Of a DNA stretch of 64,000 bases, positions 12,494-24,468 are shown piece after piece. The position numbers and the translations under genes were made by a program. The stretch is taken from assembly GCF_000026545.1 (NCBI RefSeq), contig NC_011601.1. The stretch is one strand, 5' to 3'. The notes beneath the pieces were generated by a model. That model was not told the origin of the DNA and ran no database searches. It was given only the letters and a program-made list of their open reading frames with translations. Positions within the stretch are counted from its first letter, which is position 1, and each line of letters begins with the position of its first letter. Source of the stretch: Escherichia coli O127:H6 str. E2348/69. GTDB lineage: Bacteria; Pseudomonadota; Gammaproteobacteria; Enterobacterales; Enterobacteriaceae.

Positions 12494-13330
12494 GTGAAAA
12501 AAACACAGCAAAAAGAAATCGAGAATGTGACAAATATCACAGGTGTTCGTCAAATTGAGTTATGGCGGCGTGATGATTTACAACACCCACGGTTAGATGA
12601 GGTGGCGGAAGAAGTTCCCGTTGCGCTGGTCTACAACGGCATTTCGCATGTGGTGATGATGGCGTCGCCCAAAGACCTTGAGTACTTTGCGCTCGGTTTT
12701 TCGCTTTCCGAAGGAATTATCGAAAGCCCGCGCGATATCTTCGGCATGGATGTCGTTCCTTCCTGTAATGGCCTGGAAGTACAAATTGAGCTTTCCAGCC
12801 GCCGCTTTATGGGGTTGAAGGAACGCCGCCGGGCGCTGGCGGGACGTACGGGCTGTGGCGTATGCGGTGTAGAACAGCTTAACGATATCGGTAAACCGGT
12901 GCAGCCGCTGCCGTTCACCCAGACGTTTGATCTCAACAAACTGGATGATGCATTACGTCATCTCAATGATTTCCAGCCAGTGGGGCAACTGACTGGTTGT
13001 ACTCACGCCGCTGCATGGATGTTGCCATCTGGCGAACTGGTCGGCGGGCATGAAGACGTGGGTCGCCATGTGGCGCTGGACAAACTGTTAGGCCGCCGGT
13101 CACAAGAAGGGGAAAGCTGGCAGCAAGGTGCGGTGCTGGTTTCCAGCCGTGCCAGTTATGAAATGGTGCAAAAGTCGGCGATGTGCGGCGTAGAGATTTT
13201 GTTTGCGGTGTCTGCCGCGACCACACTTGCTGTAGAAGTGGCTGAGCGCTGTAATCTGACGCTGGTGGGCTTTTGTAAACCGGGTCGGGCAACGGTTTAT
13301 ACCCATCCGCAGCGTTTGGTTCATAATTAA
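12494..13330 (+). CDS. fdhD: formate dehydrogenase sulfurtransferase FdhD
   Basis: 278-aa ORF from a GTG start, divergent from fdoG. Confidence 0.9.
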
Positions 13331-13337
13331 AGAAATA

Positions 13338-13373
13338 CCGCAATTCTGATTCTGGATTGCGGTTTTATTTTTC
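13338..13373 (+). terminator. rho-independent terminator after fdhD
   Basis: CCGCAAT...ATTGCGG stem followed by TTTTATTTTTC. Confidence 0.65.
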
Positions 13374-13640
13374 TATTAAATAATCCTCAATATATTATTC
13401 AGCATTTAAATAATAATTTCACCACAATAAATTATCTCGTTAATTCCGGTTTATATCGATATACTCCGGTCGCATTAATCCTTTAAGAATTAATCATTAT
13501 TTATATAAGACATTTTGTTTTAATCATCGCGTCAATAAATAAATGTTTCTGATGAGTGAATGCAAATAACAAACCTTGCACCGGTTGTAAAAACAGCAAT
13601 GTATTTTCAATAGTGGGTGATGGATTATGAGTATTGAAAA
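13374..13640 (+). promoter_or_regulatory. strongly AT-rich leader/promoter region upstream of the Hsp90-paralog cassette
   Basis: GC roughly 25-30 percent by eye; TTGCAC at 13576-13581 as a possible -35; no precise promoter assigned. Confidence 0.3.
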
Positions 13641-15476
13641 ATGAGTACATTACAGTTACCTGGCAGTTCATATTCTACTGAAGTTAATTTAAACGGCTTA
13701 ATTGAGGTGCTCAGTAAGCACCTTTACTCTACCCCCGTGGTCGCCGTGCGCGAGCTGGTGCAGAACGGACACGATGCGATCGTGCGCCGCAGGATTGAGC
13801 AGCCCGATGCGCCAAAGGATAACCAAATTCGTGTGGTGGCAGACGTGGCGAAGTCCACCATCACCATTACCGATACCGGTGCGGGTTTGACAGAAAGCGA
13901 AATTCACGGCTTCCTGGCAACAGTGGGCGTGGGTTATACCCGAATGTTGCGCCAGCAGGATGACAACACCGGTTTAATTGGTATGTTCGGCCTTGGTTTC
14001 TTGTCAGCATTTGTACTTGCAAAAGAGGTCACGGTGTTGACCACATCCTGGCAAACGCCGGATCAGAGCTGGAAATACCACTCTACCGACGGGCAAAAAT
14101 ATACCGTTACGCCGCATCAGTCCTCGGAAACGGGAACGCAGGTGATTCTGACGCTCAAAGAAGAGTACAGCCATCTGGCGAGTAACAATTTGCTGAACCG
14201 CGTTCTTTCCCGCTACTGTGTATTGCTGCACGAACCGGTCTATGTCGGCGATGCCAGCGAGCCGGTAAATAAACTTCAACCACCGTGGCGTGAAGTTGCC
14301 CCCGAAGGCGTAACCATACACCGCGCGCTGGTACAGCGTAAAAATCTCGCCTTTGCCGCCCAGTTTGAATCCTCCTTCGAACCGATTTGCACCATTCCGG
14401 TGGTGCCAGCGGGAATGAGCGACGCGGTTGGGATTTTATGGATTCAGGATGGCGCGACCTACGGCACCAGCGATAACCGCAACCTGTCGTTGTTTTTGCG
14501 CGGCATGTTACTGGATGATGAAGCGCGTGAGTTGTTACCGCCCTGGGCCGGATTTATTGGCGGCGTGATTGAGTCATCGAAACTGACGCCGACGGCGAGC
14601 AGGGAAGATCTCCAGCGGGATGCAACCTGGGTTGCGGTACAGGAGGCGTTAAAAGAGGCGCTGATTTCTGGTTTGTCCGATCTCGCACAAAATCAGCCAG
14701 AAATCTGGCGGCGGGTATTAATGCGCCACAACGAAGCGTTGCTGGGTGCGGCCTTGTGTGATGACCGTCTGTTTGATTTGCTCAAAGATCGCTTGCAGGT
14801 GCCAACGTCAAAAGGGGCGCTGCTGGCGAAGGATTTACGCGTTAATAACAGCATTCATATTCTGTTAAGCCGCGACGGCGGTTTTGAAGAGATGTTGTTC
14901 CATATTCTGCAACGGCCTGTAGCCCGTGGCGATCGCTATGCGGTGGTGCCATTTTTACGCCGTTGGGCGCTGTTATATCACTGCCGGATTGTCGAAGTCG
15001 GTACGCAAACGGGTAATGAGCAGTTGTTCAGCCTGGCAGAATTACCCAAAGAGCAGGTGGCTTATCTGGAAGAGCATCTCTGCGACGGCGAGCAATTAAT
15101 TATCTCACGCTTCGAACCCGCCGTTTTACCGTTAGTGGTTACACCAGACCGCGAAGCAGAATTAAAACAAATTCTCGAACAGGATGACGCAGATAAACGC
15201 ATCAGTACCGCAGCGTTAATGCTGGCGCGGCAATTTACCTCGCAAATCCAAAAATCTAAAACTTCAAGTCTGTATATCAACCTTAATAACCCCTGTGTCA
15301 TGCAACTGGTGACGGCCTTACAACACCATCAACAGCCAGCGGCAGCATTACGGTTATTAAAATCGCTGAAAGTGATTTTGTGCTCCAGCGGTAATAAAGA
15401 ACAGCAGTGGGATTTACACCAGGCACTGGAAGATTTTACTCAGGTTATTCCTGTCTTAATTAATCAAGGAAAATAA
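13641..15476 (+). CDS. divergent Hsp90/HtpG-family paralog (GHKL ATPase with Hsp90 middle domain)
   Basis: 611 aa; N-terminus aligns by eye to HtpG: YSTEV..LYS..VRELVQNGHDA (HtpG FQSEV..LYS..LRELISNASDA), ITDTGAGLTESE (ISDNGVGMTRDE), GLIGMFGLGFLSAF (QLIGQFGVGFYSAF); middle domain LFLRGMLLDDEARELLP...IESSKLTPTASREDLQ (LYVQRVFIMDDAEQFMP...IDSSDLPLNVSREILQ). Confidence 0.8.
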   Translation: MSTLQLPGSSYSTEVNLNGLIEVLSKHLYSTPVVAVRELVQNGHDAIVRRRIEQPDAPKDNQIRVVADVAKSTITITDTGAGLTESEIHGFLATVGVGYTRMLRQQDDNTGLIGMFGLGFLSAFVLAKEVTVLTTSWQTPDQSWKYHSTDGQKYTVTPHQSSETGTQVILTLKEEYSHLASNNLLNRVLSRYCVLLHEPVYVGDASEPVNKLQPPWREVAPEGVTIHRALVQRKNLAFAAQFESSFEPICTIPVVPAGMSDAVGILWIQDGATYGTSDNRNLSLFLRGMLLDDEARELLPPWAGFIGGVIESSKLTPTASREDLQRDATWVAVQEALKEALISGLSDLAQNQPEIWRRVLMRHNEALLGAALCDDRLFDLLKDRLQVPTSKGALLAKDLRVNNSIHILLSRDGGFEEMLFHILQRPVARGDRYAVVPFLRRWALLYHCRIVEVGTQTGNEQLFSLAELPKEQVAYLEEHLCDGEQLIISRFEPAVLPLVVTPDREAELKQILEQDDADKRISTAALMLARQFTSQIQKSKTSSLYINLNNPCVMQLVTALQHHQQPAAALRLLKSLKVILCSSGNKEQQWDLHQALEDFTQVIPVLINQGK

Positions 15477-15477
15477 A

Positions 15478-17784
15478 ATGGATACATGGGAGTGGTACAA
15501 CAAATATAGTCAAGAGTTGCGTGATGCCGGGCAAGAATATATTCCGCAGCTTATTGATGATTTTTCAGAAAGTGTTTTGCACCTACAAATAGAAAAATGT
15601 GATTCGCTATTGCCGGAAATGAAAGCACTGAATCAAGTCGCCAAAAATCCGTGGCTGGAAATATTTATTGGTCACTGGGAAATGCGTCATCGCCTGACTA
15701 ACTATGAAGAAGGTGAAAAGGTGCTGCCAGACGTGGTAGCGCTGTTTGAAAAAGCGCATCGGGAAGAGGCGAAAGATTGCCCGCAATCTATCTGCGTTAC
15801 CCAGGATTTATCAGCCTGCTACGAAAATATTGACGCACCAGGCTGGGCGAATGAACGCATGGCGGTGTGTGAAGAAACCATCGCGCGCATTGATCCGACC
15901 TGGAGCTGTTTTCAGTGTTTGTCCACTGAATATGCCAGCGCACTGATAGATTCCAAAAGAACAGAGGAGGCACTGGCTTATCTGGATCGGCAAATCGACG
16001 CAGTTAAAGCAGCCGGGAAAGATGATATTGATCCATTACTTTATACTCGCGCCGATATTCTGATTGAACTTCAGCGTTATGATGAAGCACGCAAATTGAT
16101 TGATGAGCTGACAGAAGCCAATGATTACTGGGGCCGCGACCGCATTAGTAATCACCTAAAAAAACTGTACATCATGGCGTTATGCGGGCAGGACGAAGAA
16201 GTCTGGGAGGAATTACCGCGTTGGTCCGATCTGACTCCGCATTCATGGGGGTCATGGCTGAAAATCATTACTGTGTTACTTCCCCGTCATCCACAAAGAA
16301 ACAACTGGCAACTGGCGCGCATCATCCAGAAAATGCTGGAGCAACGTTCACAGGCCGGGGCGCATCGAAAAGTGGTTAATCTGGCAAAACTACAAATCAC
16401 CCTGGCGCTGGAGCGTGAATCCGTCTGGGTTGCCAAAATAGCGATGAAACTGGCCCAGCGACACATGCCAAAATTACGCGCGTTACTGGGCGTCGATCGC
16501 GAGTTTCTCGAACTTAGCGAAAAAATCGCCACCAAAGAAGCAGAGTTGCTTGCTCGTCCGGTTGTAGAAGTACCTGAAAATAGCGACGAAGAAACGCAGC
16601 CAGATCCAGAAAAAGACGTCGAAATATTCCGCCGCGCTTATCTGAACACACCAGACGATGCAGAGTTACTGGGCAAACTGGTCAATGCGTTAAATGCCTG
16701 TAATGCGATTAATGAGTCAATTGAACTTCTGCAACGCTATGTTGAAAGCCACCTCCATGAAGATAATGGTCTTTGCTTCGATCTGTTGGATTTATTGCTC
16801 CACCGTGACGATCTGCAAACCATTGAGCACCTGGCGAAGCAGTATGAACAGGCGGGGCTGCTACATATGGCCTTGTGGTTCCGGGCGCGAGTGATCAACC
16901 AACAGGAAGACTGGAGTGAACTGGAGTCGATTGGACAACAGTTGCTGCAAAACGAAAAAGGGCGTGAGTGGGTTGGCGTTTATCGCATGTGCTCCTGGGC
17001 AGCACAAAAACAGGAAGCCTGGGATCGACAGCTGGATTATTTACAACAATTGCAGCAACTGATGATTAGCCGTGAAGAAGATATTCGTAATCTCCAGTGG
17101 GATATCATGGCGACCGCCAGCATCCTGCAACAATGGGATTTGGTTCGTGCTATTGCTGCTGAACTGGAAATCGAACTCACGGAAGGTGAAGGTTTTATTG
17201 ACGAAAAATGGGGGCTGCTAAACATTCGCTTCCGGGAAAATTATGAATACCGCTATTACTATGCTCAACGTATTGGGCCGGTAACCGCAAGGATCATTGA
17301 GCCAACTTACCGGACCGATTATCCGCAACATGTTGATGAGGTTGTGGTATTCGATGCAGAAATGTTGAATACCCGACCAGAGGATGAGGAAGAGCAGAAG
17401 AATTTCACTCCGCTTTATGGGTGCCTGAAAACCATTATCCCGACCGAATACGGCGAGTCCTGGTTCTGCGAAGGTGTCATGCCTGGTGAAGAAGAGTTTA
17501 ATACTTTCCGTGAGGCGCTCCGTGAACGAAACTGGTACTACTGGAGCAACAGTAATGACGACTATACGTTAACGGACAGTCATCAAGGAGAAGGCGCTGA
17601 GCCGCTGTCTGCATTCTATTTTGTTATCAGTGCGCCGCGTTCAGTTTCTAAAGGTGATATCGACAAGACCTTGCACGAATTGACCGCTGACTGGAAACAT
17701 CCGTTGTGCTGGTGGCGTCTTGCCAAAGAAGCCGGGGCGAATGAAGAGAAACATGCTGCTATTGCCGAGAGATATGGAATGTAA
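15478..17784 (+). CDS. 768-aa acidic, predicted all-helical repeat protein of unknown function, coupled to the Hsp90 paralog
   Basis: ATG one nucleotide after the upstream TAA; long uninterrupted ORF; TPR-like amphipathic segments; Trp/Tyr-rich C-terminal region; no catalytic motif I can name. Confidence 0.65.
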   Translation: MDTWEWYNKYSQELRDAGQEYIPQLIDDFSESVLHLQIEKCDSLLPEMKALNQVAKNPWLEIFIGHWEMRHRLTNYEEGEKVLPDVVALFEKAHREEAKDCPQSICVTQDLSACYENIDAPGWANERMAVCEETIARIDPTWSCFQCLSTEYASALIDSKRTEEALAYLDRQIDAVKAAGKDDIDPLLYTRADILIELQRYDEARKLIDELTEANDYWGRDRISNHLKKLYIMALCGQDEEVWEELPRWSDLTPHSWGSWLKIITVLLPRHPQRNNWQLARIIQKMLEQRSQAGAHRKVVNLAKLQITLALERESVWVAKIAMKLAQRHMPKLRALLGVDREFLELSEKIATKEAELLARPVVEVPENSDEETQPDPEKDVEIFRRAYLNTPDDAELLGKLVNALNACNAINESIELLQRYVESHLHEDNGLCFDLLDLLLHRDDLQTIEHLAKQYEQAGLLHMALWFRARVINQQEDWSELESIGQQLLQNEKGREWVGVYRMCSWAAQKQEAWDRQLDYLQQLQQLMISREEDIRNLQWDIMATASILQQWDLVRAIAAELEIELTEGEGFIDEKWGLLNIRFRENYEYRYYYAQRIGPVTARIIEPTYRTDYPQHVDEVVVFDAEMLNTRPEDEEEQKNFTPLYGCLKTIIPTEYGESWFCEGVMPGEEEFNTFREALRERNWYYWSNSNDDYTLTDSHQGEGAEPLSAFYFVISAPRSVSKGDIDKTLHELTADWKHPLCWWRLAKEAGANEEKHAAIAERYGM

Positions 17785-17881
17785 GCGGCACTAACGTTTG
17801 TCCGACTCTGGTGTAGCTGAACGGTGAAATCCCAGGTCGGACAACAAACCGTACTAACGGGGGGCCCAAAAATTGTGTCTC

Positions 17882-19630
17882 TCACCCCTGACGAAGTAAC
17901 GCCATAAACGCTTCATACCCTGTTAACCTGGCAATAGTTTCCGCCGGATGCTGACACAGGACGCTGGCAAGATAGCTGAATATTTTCAACTCGTGACGCG
18001 CATCGGCGGCGGCACAGGCGATCAACACGTGGTTAATGACTTCGTTATTCACCTCGATCGGGTGGGCGAGGGTAATAAAAAATCCACGAAAACGTCGCTC
18101 CTGCTCGCTCCAGCAATGTGGGATGGCGAGGCGATTAACAATCAGGTTTTCACCTTCGCCTTCGCGGGCGATGATGCGTTGTGCTTCATCGGTGGTAATA
18201 TGGTGTTGCGTCACTAATTGCGCACAAATTTGCCGGGTAATATGTTGCCAGCTTTCACCGCGTACATTCGAATAATGAAAACTTCCGGGGGCAGAGAAAA
18301 AACGCTCCGGTTGCTGGCGAATAAATGCCGTCGCCAGAAAATGTTTTATTTGTTCGATACCGGCAGCCGTAATGATATTTTTTACGGTGATGTAATTATT
18401 TACCGCGTCATCCAGTAAATAATGGCTGTTGTTAATGATCAATAACGGCTCAATTTCTTCGCGAATGGCAACAAGTTCGCTTAAGCTACGGGCAATAATC
18501 ACCCGACAATTTAAAACATCGCGCTCAATGGCGAGCTGATTAATAGTGGCAATCGCGTTCTGATCAGAGAGCAAAATGATCGGCTGGCGTTCGTTTTGAT
18601 GCCGTTCCAGCGCACAGGCAAAATACAAACCGATCAGATCGCTGTCGAAAAGGGGAATATCGAGTTGTTCACGCAGTAGCGTAATAAAGTGCAGACTCAT
18701 ATCAAAGGCCGCAGGCCAGGCGGCTTTCAGGTTATTCATGCTGCTTTGGCGGTGCTCACCAATCCACACCGGCGCGGCAAGGCAACGTAATAAATGCCCG
18801 GTAATATTCTCAACCAGCTGCGTATCAATAATATTCAATGACGCGATGCCCGGCACCCTTTGCAGCAACCCCTGCACATTATCGGCAGAAATTACCTGTG
18901 CTTGCTGATGCTGTTTCTCTATCAAACCTGTCAGGGTTCTTACAGCGTTATCACCAAGAAACATGCCGCTTTGTTCAACGATTTGTTTTATCTCGTCACC
19001 GGGATATTGCGGCCACTCATCGGTCAGTTGATTACGCAGGGCGTAAATAGCCAGTATCAGGCTGGAGAGATAATCACCCTGCATAAGCGGCAAGCGGTGT
19101 TGGTTGTCGCAGGCTGTGGATAAATGCTGAAGGTTGTCTCGTGTTACGCCAGCCAGAGGAATTAAAAACGGATCTTTGCGCAGCAAGTTCGCCAGCAAAA
19201 TAACGCGTTTCTCTTCTGTCTCATCAATGAAATGGCCCAAACCGGGGCGACTGGCCAGGCAGCAAGTGCGCTCATAACGTTGCTTTAATCGTGGCAGACG
19301 CTCTGCGACCCACGTTTCTGGCAAATTAAGCGCCGAGGCGAGCTGCGCACGGGGAGTAAAGGTATTCAGTAATAACAACGCCAGCAGCCGATCGTCGTTA
19401 TCGTGCTTTTGCAGCAACTGAAAAAAGCTGCGGCGCTCGAAGATTTCCAGCTGATAGCCCGCACTACCACTGGCAGAAATGCGGGCTTTGCCGTTAAGGG
19501 TAAAGTTGAGATAGTCAATATCACGCAGTATGGTCCTGCCAGAAACGCCAGTCTGTTGCGCCAGCTCACCAGGCGTGCGCGGCTGTTGCTCCAGCAGATC
19601 GACAATCTTTAACTGGCGTTCGTTTAGCAT
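17882..19630 (-). CDS. frvR: frv operon transcriptional regulator
   Basis: 582 aa, N-terminal HTH, K-12 size and order. Confidence 0.9.
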   Translation of the reverse strand: MLNERQLKIVDLLEQQPRTPGELAQQTGVSGRTILRDIDYLNFTLNGKARISASGSAGYQLEIFERRSFFQLLQKHDNDDRLLALLLLNTFTPRAQLASALNLPETWVAERLPRLKQRYERTCCLASRPGLGHFIDETEEKRVILLANLLRKDPFLIPLAGVTRDNLQHLSTACDNQHRLPLMQGDYLSSLILAIYALRNQLTDEWPQYPGDEIKQIVEQSGMFLGDNAVRTLTGLIEKQHQQAQVISADNVQGLLQRVPGIASLNIIDTQLVENITGHLLRCLAAPVWIGEHRQSSMNNLKAAWPAAFDMSLHFITLLREQLDIPLFDSDLIGLYFACALERHQNERQPIILLSDQNAIATINQLAIERDVLNCRVIIARSLSELVAIREEIEPLLIINNSHYLLDDAVNNYITVKNIITAAGIEQIKHFLATAFIRQQPERFFSAPGSFHYSNVRGESWQHITRQICAQLVTQHHITTDEAQRIIAREGEGENLIVNRLAIPHCWSEQERRFRGFFITLAHPIEVNNEVINHVLIACAAADARHELKIFSYLASVLCQHPAETIARLTGYEAFMALLRQG

Positions 19631-20700
19631 TAATCCACCTGACGGAACTGGCTAAACGCGTTGACTTTCTCCGCAGTTAAGGTCGTCAGAAAATCCCGTA
19701 TCAGCATGAGCAGAGCATCGTAATCGGCTTTTGAAATCATGCCGCTGTTAGCGTGCAGATAACGAGTTGGCAGACACAGCGCAACAACCGGACGCCCGCC
19801 GCCCATTACGTTGTAGCGCCCGCCATCCGTCGCACCGGTTTTCATGGTGGAAAATTGCAGCGGTAAATCATTCTGCGTGGCACAGCTTTTTAACGCCACC
19901 ACCAGCTTCTGGTTGGGGAAGTAGCGTTTATCAAACAGCATCAGCCCCGGCCCCTGGCCCAGTTTTAGCGGGTATTTAATGTTATCAATGCCCGGAACAT
20001 CGCCTGCGACGGCGGTATCCAGCACGATCACAACATCCGGTTTAATGTGTTCCGCCGAGGTTTGCGCCCCGCGCAGGCCAACTTCTTCTTCCACACTGCC
20101 AACGCCATACAGCGTAATTTCGGGATTATTCACCGTCTGCAATAGCTCAGCCATCATTGCGCAGCCGATGCGGTTATCCAACGCCTTGCCGACCACTTTA
20201 TCTTCGCCCCAGCAGGCAAAATTGGCTTCCGGGCTAATAAAATTACCAATTTCCACGCCGCATTTTTCCGCTTCTTCGCGGCTGTTCGCGCCAATATCAA
20301 TGAACATCTCATCAAATGACAGCGGTTGTTGCTTTTGCTTTTCGGTTAACGCATGTGGCGCGACGGAACCAATCACACCAAGGATTTTAAATCCCTTGTG
20401 TGTGCGTATGGTTACCCGGTGGTTGAGCATCGACTGATTCCACCAGCCACCAATGGTGGTGAAACGCAGAAAACCGCTCTCGTCGATGTGGGTGACCATA
20501 AAGCCGACTTCATCCATATGCCCGACAACGGCAACTTTTGGACCTTTATTCCCCTTACGGGCAACAAAGCTGCCCAGACCATCAAAGGTGATCTCATTAA
20601 TGCAAGGTTCCAGCGTGTTTATCAGAATGTCGCGAACTTCCTGTTCATCGCCGCTAACGGCGCTGGCTTCGCACAACTGTTGCAGTAACTCAATGTTCAT
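19630..20700 (-). CDS. frvX: M42-family aminopeptidase/cellulase-like protein
   Basis: 356 aa from MNIELLQQL; the track ORF starts two codons upstream. Confidence 0.9.
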   Translation of the reverse strand: MNIELLQQLCEASAVSGDEQEVRDILINTLEPCINEITFDGLGSFVARKGNKGPKVAVVGHMDEVGFMVTHIDESGFLRFTTIGGWWNQSMLNHRVTIRTHKGFKILGVIGSVAPHALTEKQKQQPLSFDEMFIDIGANSREEAEKCGVEIGNFISPEANFACWGEDKVVGKALDNRIGCAMMAELLQTVNNPEITLYGVGSVEEEVGLRGAQTSAEHIKPDVVIVLDTAVAGDVPGIDNIKYPLKLGQGPGLMLFDKRYFPNQKLVVALKSCATQNDLPLQFSTMKTGATDGGRYNVMGGGRPVVALCLPTRYLHANSGMISKADYDALLMLIRDFLTTLTAEKVNAFSQFRQVD

Positions 20701-22141
20701 GGACAAGCTCCTGTTGTGCGGCTTTCGCTTTGCGGCGTAACCACAATCCTTTCAGGACGATAATGAATGAAATGTTCAGCGCCAGACCAATCGCCAGCAC
20801 CAGATAAAACGAACCTACCGGCGACATCAGGCCGATCAGCGGGTCAAAGATACCTAAACCCGGTGCCAGACGTTTGATTCCGAAAGCGATCACCAGCACG
20901 CCGGTAATGCCGCCCGCCAGCGTATTGGCGGTAATCATCGGCAACGGAGCTGCCAGAGCGTAAGGAATAGCTGGTTCGGTTGCGACTGTGGCACCGACCA
21001 CAATGGCACTACTGGCAGCCTCTTTTTCCTGTTGAGTAAACAGTTTGGGCGCAATGAACGTCGCAAGACCCGACGCGACGGGCGGCATCAGCGCGACAAC
21101 GCCGACGATGGCGTACCAGTCATAAATGTGTTTTTCCAGCAGCGAGAAGCAGAAGAACCAGGCAGTTTTGTTGATGGGGCCGCCCATATCGAACGCCAGC
21201 ATCGCACCAACCAGAAACGCCGCCGCAAACTTCATTGACGGAGGAATAGTATTCAGGAAGTGCAGCAGCCCGCCCATGAGGTCGGACATCACCGGCCCGA
21301 TAACGTAGTAAGTGAGCACGCCAAAAACCAGCAGAGTAACGAACGGGATCAGCATTGAACCGAGCAGCGGTTGTAATGCTTTGCCAAGGCGCACTTTGCG
21401 GAACCAGAAGACGAAGTAGCCAATTGCCAGCCCCAGCACCACCGCACCGAGGAAGCCCGCGCCAGACTGGGTGCCGAGCAACGCTTTGTCGTTCGCCAGA
21501 TAGCAAACCAGAAACGCCGGAGCGAAAGCGGGTTTATCGGCAATCGACGAGGCAATATAAGCGCCCATGATGGGGATCATAAAGGTGAAGCCGAGATAAC
21601 CGATGGATTCAACCACCCAGGTAAACGACGGCGCGCCTTTCGACATATCGGTATACGGCAAACCGAACTGCACCAGCATGTTGGCAAGCGCCACCAGAAT
21701 ACCGCCGCCGATGACAAACGGCAGTGCCGCAGAGACGCCCGCCATCAGGTGGCTCATCACGCTGCCGCTTTGTACTTCCTGTTTGCCGAGCTTTACGCCG
21801 CTATCTGCGGCAAAAAGCTGCGAGTTTGTCGGTAATTCACTGAAAATCTGGTCGATATTTTTCAACGCCTGGGAGATGGCAATCTCATAAACCTTCTTCC
21901 CGGCAAACCGCGCGCGATCGTCGCCGCTCAGACCACGCCCGGTGGCGAGAATCACGTAATCGGCAGCGGCAATCTCTTCGCTGGATAAGCGGTTTTCAAC
22001 GCCGCTTGATCCTTGAGTTTCCACTTTAATGGTATAGCCGAGAGAACGGGCTTTCTGTTCCAGGGCTTCCGCCACCATGTAGGTGTGAGCGATCCCGGCA
22101 GGGCAGTTGGTGATCGCGACAATACGTAAGGATGACTCCAT
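20690..22141 (-). CDS. frvB: PTS fructose-like EIIBC component
   Basis: 483 aa, N-terminal IIB Cys motif (NCPAGIAHTYM), polytopic C-terminus. Confidence 0.9.
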   Translation of the reverse strand: MESSLRIVAITNCPAGIAHTYMVAEALEQKARSLGYTIKVETQGSSGVENRLSSEEIAAADYVILATGRGLSGDDRARFAGKKVYEIAISQALKNIDQIFSELPTNSQLFAADSGVKLGKQEVQSGSVMSHLMAGVSAALPFVIGGGILVALANMLVQFGLPYTDMSKGAPSFTWVVESIGYLGFTFMIPIMGAYIASSIADKPAFAPAFLVCYLANDKALLGTQSGAGFLGAVVLGLAIGYFVFWFRKVRLGKALQPLLGSMLIPFVTLLVFGVLTYYVIGPVMSDLMGGLLHFLNTIPPSMKFAAAFLVGAMLAFDMGGPINKTAWFFCFSLLEKHIYDWYAIVGVVALMPPVASGLATFIAPKLFTQQEKEAASSAIVVGATVATEPAIPYALAAPLPMITANTLAGGITGVLVIAFGIKRLAPGLGIFDPLIGLMSPVGSFYLVLAIGLALNISFIIVLKGLWLRRKAKAAQQELVHEH

Positions 22142-23073: not shown

Positions 23074-24468
23074 ATGAAAAAATCGACATTATCTTTAGCC
23101 ATCGGTTTATTATTGGCATGTAGTACCGGTATGGCAAAAACACAGCATTTAACGCTGGAACAACGCATGGCATTGCTGGAAGAACGCCTGGAAGCGGCAG
23201 AAATGCGGGCAGCAAAAGCAGAGGGGCAGGTTAAACAGCTTCAGACACAACAAGCCGCCGAGATCCGCGAAATTAAGATCGCACAGGGCAACACGCCGGT
23301 AAACGGTCAATCAACGACGGAGTCAGAGAAGAAAAACGCCACCCCGCCTAATCTCCTGCTTTCAGGGTATGGCGATTTAAAAATCTACGGTGACGTAGAA
23401 TTTAATATGGATGCGGAAAGTAATCATGGCCTGCTGGCAATGACCAACGCTGATGTGAATAGCGATCCCACTAATGAACAGTGGAATCTCAATGGTCGTA
23501 TTCTGTTAGGTTTTGATGGTATGCGAAAACTGGATAATGGCTATTTCGCTGGGTTCTCCGTACAACCGCTGGGGGATATGCACGGTTCAGTAAATATCGA
23601 TGATGCGGTTTTCTTCTTTGGCAAAGAAAACGACTGGAAGGTCAAAGTAGGCCGTTTTGAAGCCTACGATATGTTCCCGCTGAATCAGGATACCTTTGTT
23701 GAACATTCCGGTAATACTGCGAACGATCTTTATGACGATGGCAGCGGTTATATCTATATGATGAAAGAGGGCCGCGGGCGTTCTAACGCTGGCGGTAATT
23801 TCCTCGTCAGCAAACAACTCGATAACTGGTATTTTGAATTAAACACGTTACTTGAAGACGGAACATCTTTATATAATGACGGTAATTATCATGGACGCGA
23901 TATGGAGCAGCAGAAAAATGTTGCTTATCTGCGTCCGGTAATTGCCTGGTCGCCGACGGAAGAATTCACCGTTTCCGCAGCGATGGAAGCGAACGTAGTA
24001 AATAATGCTTATGGTTATACCGATAGCAAGGGTAATTTTGTCGATCAGTCCGATCGTACCGGCTATGGTATGAGCATGACCTGGAATGGCCTGAAAACGG
24101 ATCCGGAAAATGGCGTCGTGGTTAATCTTAATACCGCCTATTTAGATGCTAATAATGAGAAAGATTTCACTGCCGGGATTAACGCGCTGTGGAAACGTTT
24201 CGAGCTGGGTTATATCTACGCACATAATAAGATTGATGAATTTAGTGGCGTGGTTTGTGATAACGATTGCTGGATTGATGATGAAGGAACATACAACATT
24301 CACACCATTCATGCGTCTTATCAGTTCGCTAATGTGATGGATATGGAGAACTTTAATATTTACCTCGGCACGTATTACTCCATTCTGGATAGCGACGGCG
24401 ATAAGATACACGGCGACGATAGTGATGACCGTTACGGCGCACGCGTTCGCTTTAAATACTTCTTCTGA
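23074..24468 (+). CDS. putative outer-membrane beta-barrel porin with N-terminal coiled-coil (carbohydrate-porin-like)
   Basis: 464 aa; signal peptide MKKSTLSLAIGLLLACSTGMA; heptad-like LTLEQRMALLEERLEAAEMRAAKAEGQVKQLQ; alternating aromatic/polar strands; C-terminal ...RFKYFF; AGGGA SD upstream; absent from K-12 order as I recall it. Confidence 0.6.
   Translation: MKKSTLSLAIGLLLACSTGMAKTQHLTLEQRMALLEERLEAAEMRAAKAEGQVKQLQTQQAAEIREIKIAQGNTPVNGQSTTESEKKNATPPNLLLSGYGDLKIYGDVEFNMDAESNHGLLAMTNADVNSDPTNEQWNLNGRILLGFDGMRKLDNGYFAGFSVQPLGDMHGSVNIDDAVFFFGKENDWKVKVGRFEAYDMFPLNQDTFVEHSGNTANDLYDDGSGYIYMMKEGRGRSNAGGNFLVSKQLDNWYFELNTLLEDGTSLYNDGNYHGRDMEQQKNVAYLRPVIAWSPTEEFTVSAAMEANVVNNAYGYTDSKGNFVDQSDRTGYGMSMTWNGLKTDPENGVVVNLNTAYLDANNEKDFTAGINALWKRFELGYIYAHNKIDEFSGVVCDNDCWIDDEGTYNIHTIHASYQFANVMDMENFNIYLGTYYSILDSDGDKIHGDDSDDRYGARVRFKYFF

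Follow-up and report, generated by a model that had tools for sequence, protein, structure and literature searches.

A rare 97-bp spacer with a hairpin between an Hsp90-like/TPR gene cassette and frvR in the E2348/69 lineage of Escherichia coli

A stem-loop located between two convergent genes can be compared with several described arrangements. A canonical intrinsic terminator has a G+C-rich stem of 5 or more bp, a loop of about 3-8 nt, and a U-rich tract directly 3′ of the stem; a bidirectional terminator carries an additional A-tract 5′ of the stem. REP hairpins form a genome-wide family with loops of 3-4 nt. Integron attC sites have RYYYAAC and GTTRRRY as inversely oriented motifs at their 5′ and 3′ ends, respectively, and lie close to an integron integrase. 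Filler-DNA deletion junctions, that is, scars of illegitimate recombination, are a further relevant class, and the spacer considered here, from E. coli O127:H6 strain E2348/69, resembles them in two respects: a short orphan sequence stands where all relatives have a longer segment, and homology resumes abruptly on both sides of its 97 bp. In contrast to such junctions, its breakpoints are unusually exact, as they fall at two stop codons. How far the spacer agrees with each of the other arrangements is set out below, together with the gene orders found at this locus in other strains.

The spacer was analyzed within a window of 64,000 nt (the whole stretch of DNA under study, to which all positions refer; Table 1), which is 100% identical to the E2348/69 sequence NZ_CP059840.2. 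The region singled out in the preliminary description, 17785-17881, is exactly the whole intergenic spacer between the TPR gene and frvR. The inverted repeat reported there exists and is perfect over 9 nt (TTGTCCGAC and GTCGGACAA), and its left arm had been placed correctly (GTTTGTCCGAC at 17796-17806). The right arm, however, starts at 17836, which is 3 nt earlier than the ~17839 given before, and the perfect arms are separated by 29 nt rather than by a loop of ~32 nt. With respect to the arm length of 9-11 bp, the lower figure holds, whereas 11 bp are reached only via a 3-nt bulge, with GT (17796-97) pairing with AC (17848-49). RNA folding, which had been proposed as a check, paired the 9-nt arms and added four inner pairs, resulting in a stem of 13 bp with one bulge and a loop of 20 nt. 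The sequence said to trail the arms is also present (G6C3A5TTGTG at 17859-17877). The hairpin is flanked by a direct repeat, exact over 7 nt and matching at 11 of 14 positions when extended to 14 nt; its copies are unequally spaced from the arms, by 1 nt on the left side and by 8 nt on the right.

Table 1. Features of the locus around the TPR-gene/frvR spacer of E. coli E2348/69.
Feature	Position	Strand	Remark
fdhD	12494-13330	+	upstream of cassette
HSP90-family (GHKL) ATPase gene, 611 aa	13641-15476	+	first cassette gene, annotated ATP-binding protein
TPR-repeat protein gene, 768 aa	15478-17784	+	second cassette gene; 3′ end linked to hairpin
97-bp lineage-specific spacer	17785-17881		between TPR-gene stop (TAA, 17782-84) and frvR stop (TCA on the + strand, 17882-84)
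Direct repeat ACTAACG, left copy	17790-17796		within AAGCGGCACTAACG, 17783-96
Left arm, perfect 9-nt inverted repeat	17798-17806		TTGTCCGAC
Inner stem CTGG (17808-11) / CCAG (17832-35)	17808-17835		loop 17812-17831, 20 nt; T17807 bulged
Right arm, perfect 9-nt inverted repeat	17836-17844		GTCGGACAA
Direct repeat ACTAACG, right copy	17853-17859		within AAACCGTACTAACG, 17846-59
Tail G6-C3-A5-TTGTGTCTC	17859-17881		holds the substitutions at 17861 and 17865; dense SC477 divergence starts here
frvR	17882-19630	-	convergent with cassette; K-12-type homology begins exactly at its stop codon; then frvX, frvB, frvA

Folded by itself, the hairpin reaches -21.2 kcal/mol (z -2.9) on the + strand and -20.5 kcal/mol (z -2.4) on the - strand; when the entire 97 bp are folded, z is -1.55 and -1.49 for the two strands. 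Perfect 9-nt inverted repeats with a loop of up to 40 nt amount to 42 k-mer hits (~25 places) in the window, compared with 11.3 ± 4.5 in shuffled sequence, and about 0.02 such repeats are expected per 97 bp by chance. Of all 58-nt windows of the + strand, 4%, spread over 144 distinct places, fold as well or better. Thus, the inverted repeat exceeds chance only modestly; it is real and locally unlikely, yet not exceptional for the genome.

Three haplotypes are found between fdhD and frvR. In the K-12-type arrangement (type A), fdhD is followed by yiiG, a 49-bp spacer containing a REP-like hairpin (GTGTCGGATGCGGCGCATCCGACAC), and frvR. In type B, fdhD is followed by the ATPase and TPR genes, a spacer of ~195-220 bp, yiiG, a REP-type spacer of 49-101 bp, and frvR; this order is carried by the E. 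coli strains Eco-15, MB53, 100248, AST85, and 2014C-3075, as well as by E. whittamii, Escherichia sp. E1V33, and Escherichia sp. MOD1-EC7003. E2348/69 represents type C, in which fdhD, the ATPase gene, the TPR gene, and 97 bp lead directly to frvR; yiiG is missing from this position and was not found anywhere in the 64-kb window. It was kept downstream of the cassette in all of the seven other carriers inspected (four E. coli types and three other Escherichia), and ~260 other cassette-carrying E. coli were assigned the same order of cassette, ~200 bp, and yiiG. As the cassette carriers have the yiiG segment (219 + 1044 + 101 bp in Eco-15) and E2348/69 does not, its 97 bp replace ~1.36 kb. To the right of the cassette in type B lie the 3′ stub of K-12 fdhD, then the hairpin of the K-12 fdhD terminator and the promoter region of yiiG. 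The position of the fdhD stub puts the true right junction of the cassette ~40-50 bp after the TPR stop.

These haplotypes bear on what the spacer had been taken for. Had the same sequence been present downstream of yiiG in K-12-type genomes, it would simply have been the terminator region of frvR; a different, REP-like hairpin is located there. The proposal of a recombination scar stands insofar as the 97 bp are confined to very few genomes (see below), but not as the downstream junction of the cassette insertion, the true one being elsewhere. Because the cassette's 3′ flank, the fdhD stub, and yiiG are all missing from E2348/69, the 97 bp instead mark a second, yiiG-removing event. The comparison of gene orders thus shows the spacer to be a rare sequence, specific to its lineage, that has taken the place of the yiiG segment where the cassette was present, that is, the scar of a secondary event.

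Of 5426 complete E. coli genomes, about 266 have the 3′ end of the TPR gene (267 matched the query, nearly all of them via this 3′ end), and 6 have the 97 bp, as a single copy in each. The six carriers are three O127:H6 isolates (the E2348/69 lineage) and three environmental, SC477-like isolates. In six further public assemblies with the exact TPR protein, the 97 bp were identical without exception. Homology of E2348/69 to more than 4000 genomes restarts precisely at 17882, the stop of frvR, and homology to other cassette alleles ceases at the TPR stop, even when the last 250 bp are 98% identical, as in E1V33. A comparison of E2348/69 with SC477 yielded zero differences over 17323-17860, a stretch comprising the 3′ end of the TPR gene and the leftmost 76 nt of the spacer with the hairpin; the two differ at 17861 and 17865, and then by 13 differences per 100 bp at 17900-18000, within frvR. 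Identity through the hairpin followed by divergence indicates that the left ~76 nt of the spacer, hairpin included, travel with the cassette allele, and that a recombination breakpoint lies just right of the hairpin. Two spacer variants are known; both substitutions (17861 and 17865) lie outside the stem, and all copies of the hairpin are identical.

The region from fdhD to frv, with the cassette and the frv operon, is itself strongly mosaic, with 82-100% identity between E. coli strains in adjacent 250-bp windows (13300-21500 compared with loci L002-L011), and fdhD and fdoG, upstream of the cassette/frv region, show a steady 98-100%. This mosaicism suggests frequent recombination or diversifying selection. 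The annotation of SC477 gives a frameshift in the TPR gene (L004, 4695-7000), listed there as a pseudogene, and another in fdnG. Between frvA and rhaM, E2348/69, Eco-15, and SC477 have a gene for a carbohydrate porin (window ~23074-24468; L001, 14375-15769); the K-12-type locus is without this gene, frvA and rhaM being adjacent there.

The position of the hairpin, a stem-loop between two convergent stop codons that is foldable on both strands, is that of an intrinsic or bidirectional terminator, and 8 of its 13 pairs are G-C, in keeping with the stem of such an element. Its remaining properties are not: the loop of 20 nt (29 nt between the perfect arms) is far longer than 3-8 nt, U- or A-tracts do not flank the stem, which 3′ runs into CAAACCGTAC on the + strand and into ACGTTAGTGC on the - strand, and a consensus scan for terminators and promoters found no terminator-like site in 17785-17881. 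A shared terminator, as suggested in the preliminary description, is therefore not supported as one of the canonical kind. As to the suggestion of a structured RNA, the spacer had no match in Rfam; the sole match, to a snoRNA family, was located within the TPR gene and is attributed to chance (E 0.67, below the gathering score). ARAGORN, run over 17500-18100, found no tRNA or tRNA fragment at the junction.

A non-canonical element could still have been selected here, either as a shared (bidirectional) terminator or as a stabilizer of mRNA 3′ ends for the convergent TPR gene and frvR, retained after the deletion had taken away the REP hairpin and the U-tract terminator that serve these genes elsewhere. 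We regard this as unlikely. The hairpin's place between the convergent stop codons, its stability of about -21 kcal/mol on both strands (z -2.4 to -2.9), the similarly stable hairpin at the same place in the other haplotypes (about -20 kcal/mol, adjoining the frvR stop in all three), and a small CCGU/ACGG stem on the - strand that is followed by UUUGUUGU are all consistent with it. What argues against it, besides the main stem lacking a U-tract on both strands, the 20-nt loop, and the empty scan, is that 4% of random 58-nt windows in the region fold equally well, and that the invariance of the hairpin leaves no variation that could show selection. By eye, a hairpin of unrelated sequence appears to follow every version of the TPR gene within ~15-40 nt, the Superficieibacter homologues included (L012, 7305-7420; L013, 7305-7400; L002, 6500-6525); of these, the one of Eco-15 was folded, and those examined are mostly without a clear U-tract.

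The stable hairpins next to frvR in the other haplotypes raise the question of whether the spacer hairpin is a degenerate REP/BIME remnant, namely, a diverged allele of the REP hairpin that other strains have between yiiG and frvR. The REP hairpins of the K-12-type and ST131-type yiiG-frvR spacers likewise adjoin the frvR stop between convergent genes at about -20 kcal/mol, and the hexamers TCCGAC/GTCGGA are common to the arms and to the REP-type hairpins of K-12 (GTGTCGGATGCG...CATCCGACAC) and Eco-15. In addition, TAACGTTTG resembles TAAACGTTTTTG, which comes after the end of yiiG. Beyond the hexamers, however, there is no significant sequence similarity: in local alignments, two consensus sequences of REP and two REP-type spacers of this locus scored no better than shuffled sequence (p = 0.18-0.77), and the same applied to both spacer alleles (p = 0.17-0.66). 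Moreover, the order of the arms is reversed relative to REP, the hairpin segregates with the cassette side and not with the frvR side, and, unlike a member of a genome-wide family with 3-4-nt loops, it occurs at one place per genome in the six carriers and has a loop of 20 nt. A derivation from REP was consequently rejected, and we hold this origin to be very improbable indeed.

The direct repeats invite another interpretation, in which a small mobile element of hairpin type, MITE-like or the remnant of an IS, inserted behind the cassette, left ACTAACG as a target-site duplication, and mediated the adjacent deletion of yiiG, the hairpin being its footprint. The inverted arms are flanked by the repeat described above, and a rough estimate puts the probability of a 7-mer recurring so close (within 15 nt) to each of the arms at about 0.005. 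Furthermore, two assemblies have an IS630-family transposase gene directly beside the cassette, which indicates that IS activity occurs at this locus. Against such a footprint speaks that the sequence is single copy wherever present, with no other among the 5426 E. coli genomes, that searches of plasmids, phages, viral contigs, and metagenome contigs did not recover it (five unrelated hairpins were retrieved from the metagenome contigs), that the arms do not lie at the termini set by the direct repeats, and that no known IS end was recognized. We consider a mobile-element footprint very unlikely. In the two IS630-bearing public assemblies, which carry the identical cassette and 97-bp spacer, the IS630-family (DDE_3) transposase gene is located directly upstream of the Hsp90-like gene, in the usual place of fdhD (L021, 1-513; L023, 1-513). 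An integron attC site was rejected by inspection, the CTAAC-containing motifs being direct instead of inverted and no integrase being annotated in the 18-kb locus. It is likewise very unlikely that the hairpin with its flanking ACTAACG copies constitutes the footprint or recombination site of an undescribed small hairpin-type mobile or recombination element, which would have mobilized or remodelled the cassette and deleted yiiG, or else a 3′-UTR structure specific to the cassette and controlling its expression.

A donor of the 97 bp did not emerge from any of the searches. There was no second copy elsewhere in the 5426 complete E. coli genomes or within the 64-kb window, no match in plasmids, none in viral contigs, and a single chance match in phages (E 0.9). 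Among metagenome contigs, the stems with the fixed loop returned 0 matches, and the arms with a variable loop returned 5 unrelated hairpins with dissimilar flanks. Homology to the spacers of the other haplotypes, which a MAFFT alignment had made look plausible, was rejected after Smith-Waterman comparison with shuffles of seven cassette-yiiG spacers, three yiiG-frvR spacers, and the K-12 fdhD-yiiG spacer (p > 0.17 for all). Searching the fetched loci with the 97 bp by blastn-short gave random 9-11-mers only, and a literature search on yiiG/frvR gave nothing relevant. By these searches, the 97 bp are an orphan sequence of untraceable origin.

Taken together, the 97 bp are probably filler sequence at a lineage-specific junction, and their hairpin is probably a generic one; “filler” is meant descriptively here and does not imply a mechanism. 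Of the three readings in the preliminary description, a recombination scar is thereby the best supported, albeit in altered form. According to this proposal, an ancestor would already have carried the Hsp90-like/TPR cassette between fdhD and yiiG, and a second event would have deleted everything between the stop codons of the TPR gene and frvR, namely, the 3′ flank of the cassette, the displaced fdhD stub with its terminator, yiiG, and the REP hairpin, the place of which would now be occupied by unrelated DNA. Both breakpoints match the stop codons within about 1-3 nt. This is unexpectedly tidy for a random deletion; selection, or a spacer allele that is old and evolved independently, could account for it instead. 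The coincidence with the stop codons, together with ACTAACG, keeps the selected terminator and the mobile-element footprint alive at small probabilities. The perfect conservation of the hairpin in two otherwise mosaic lineages agrees weakly with selection, but the 538 bp around it are identical as well. For the hairpin with its 13-bp stem and 20-nt loop, we infer no dedicated function beyond that of any stable 3′ stem-loop. At most, it would block 3′-5′ exonucleases, or pause the convergent transcripts (TPR mRNA from the + strand and frvR mRNA from the - strand) after factor-dependent termination. By analogy, it would then stand in for the REP-type hairpins at the same position in haplotypes A and B.

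About 5% of complete E. coli genomes carry the Hsp90-like/TPR cassette (13641-17784 in the window), as do E. whittamii and two further Escherichia species, and homologues that are 73-74% identical occur in Superficieibacter in a different context. Its ATPase matches NCBIfam NF010683 with E 1.7e-85 (below the cutoff of the model) and TRAP1/HtpG structures with E about 1e-30, and contains the Pfam domains HATPase_c_3 and HSP90 middle domain. Judged by these matches, the annotated ATP-binding protein is a genuine HSP90-family paralogue, and its pairing with a TPR protein is reminiscent of eukaryotic Hsp90 and its TPR co-chaperones. PADLOC did not call the cassette a defence system; there were weak matches to Tiamat TmtA in the N-terminal ATPase region and none for the TPR protein. 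The insertion point of the cassette is in the last codons of fdhD (window 13318-13363); the gene's new 3′ end and a U-tract terminator (13337-13363) both come from the cassette. The stub of the original fdhD 3′ end (GCAAAGGTTG..TTAATTAAAATAAG) and the original fdhD terminator hairpin are found right of the cassette in the yiiG-retaining haplotypes (L002, 6520-6600; L003, 2725-2800), an arrangement that looks like att-type direct repeats, though no integrase is present.

For the E2348/69 lineage, the spacer documents that yiiG was lost in a secondary rearrangement of this highly mosaic locus, and its presence in 6 of 5426 complete genomes makes it a convenient lineage marker. The junction hairpin matters little by itself; the neighbouring cassette of an Hsp90-family ATPase and a TPR protein is the more interesting element.
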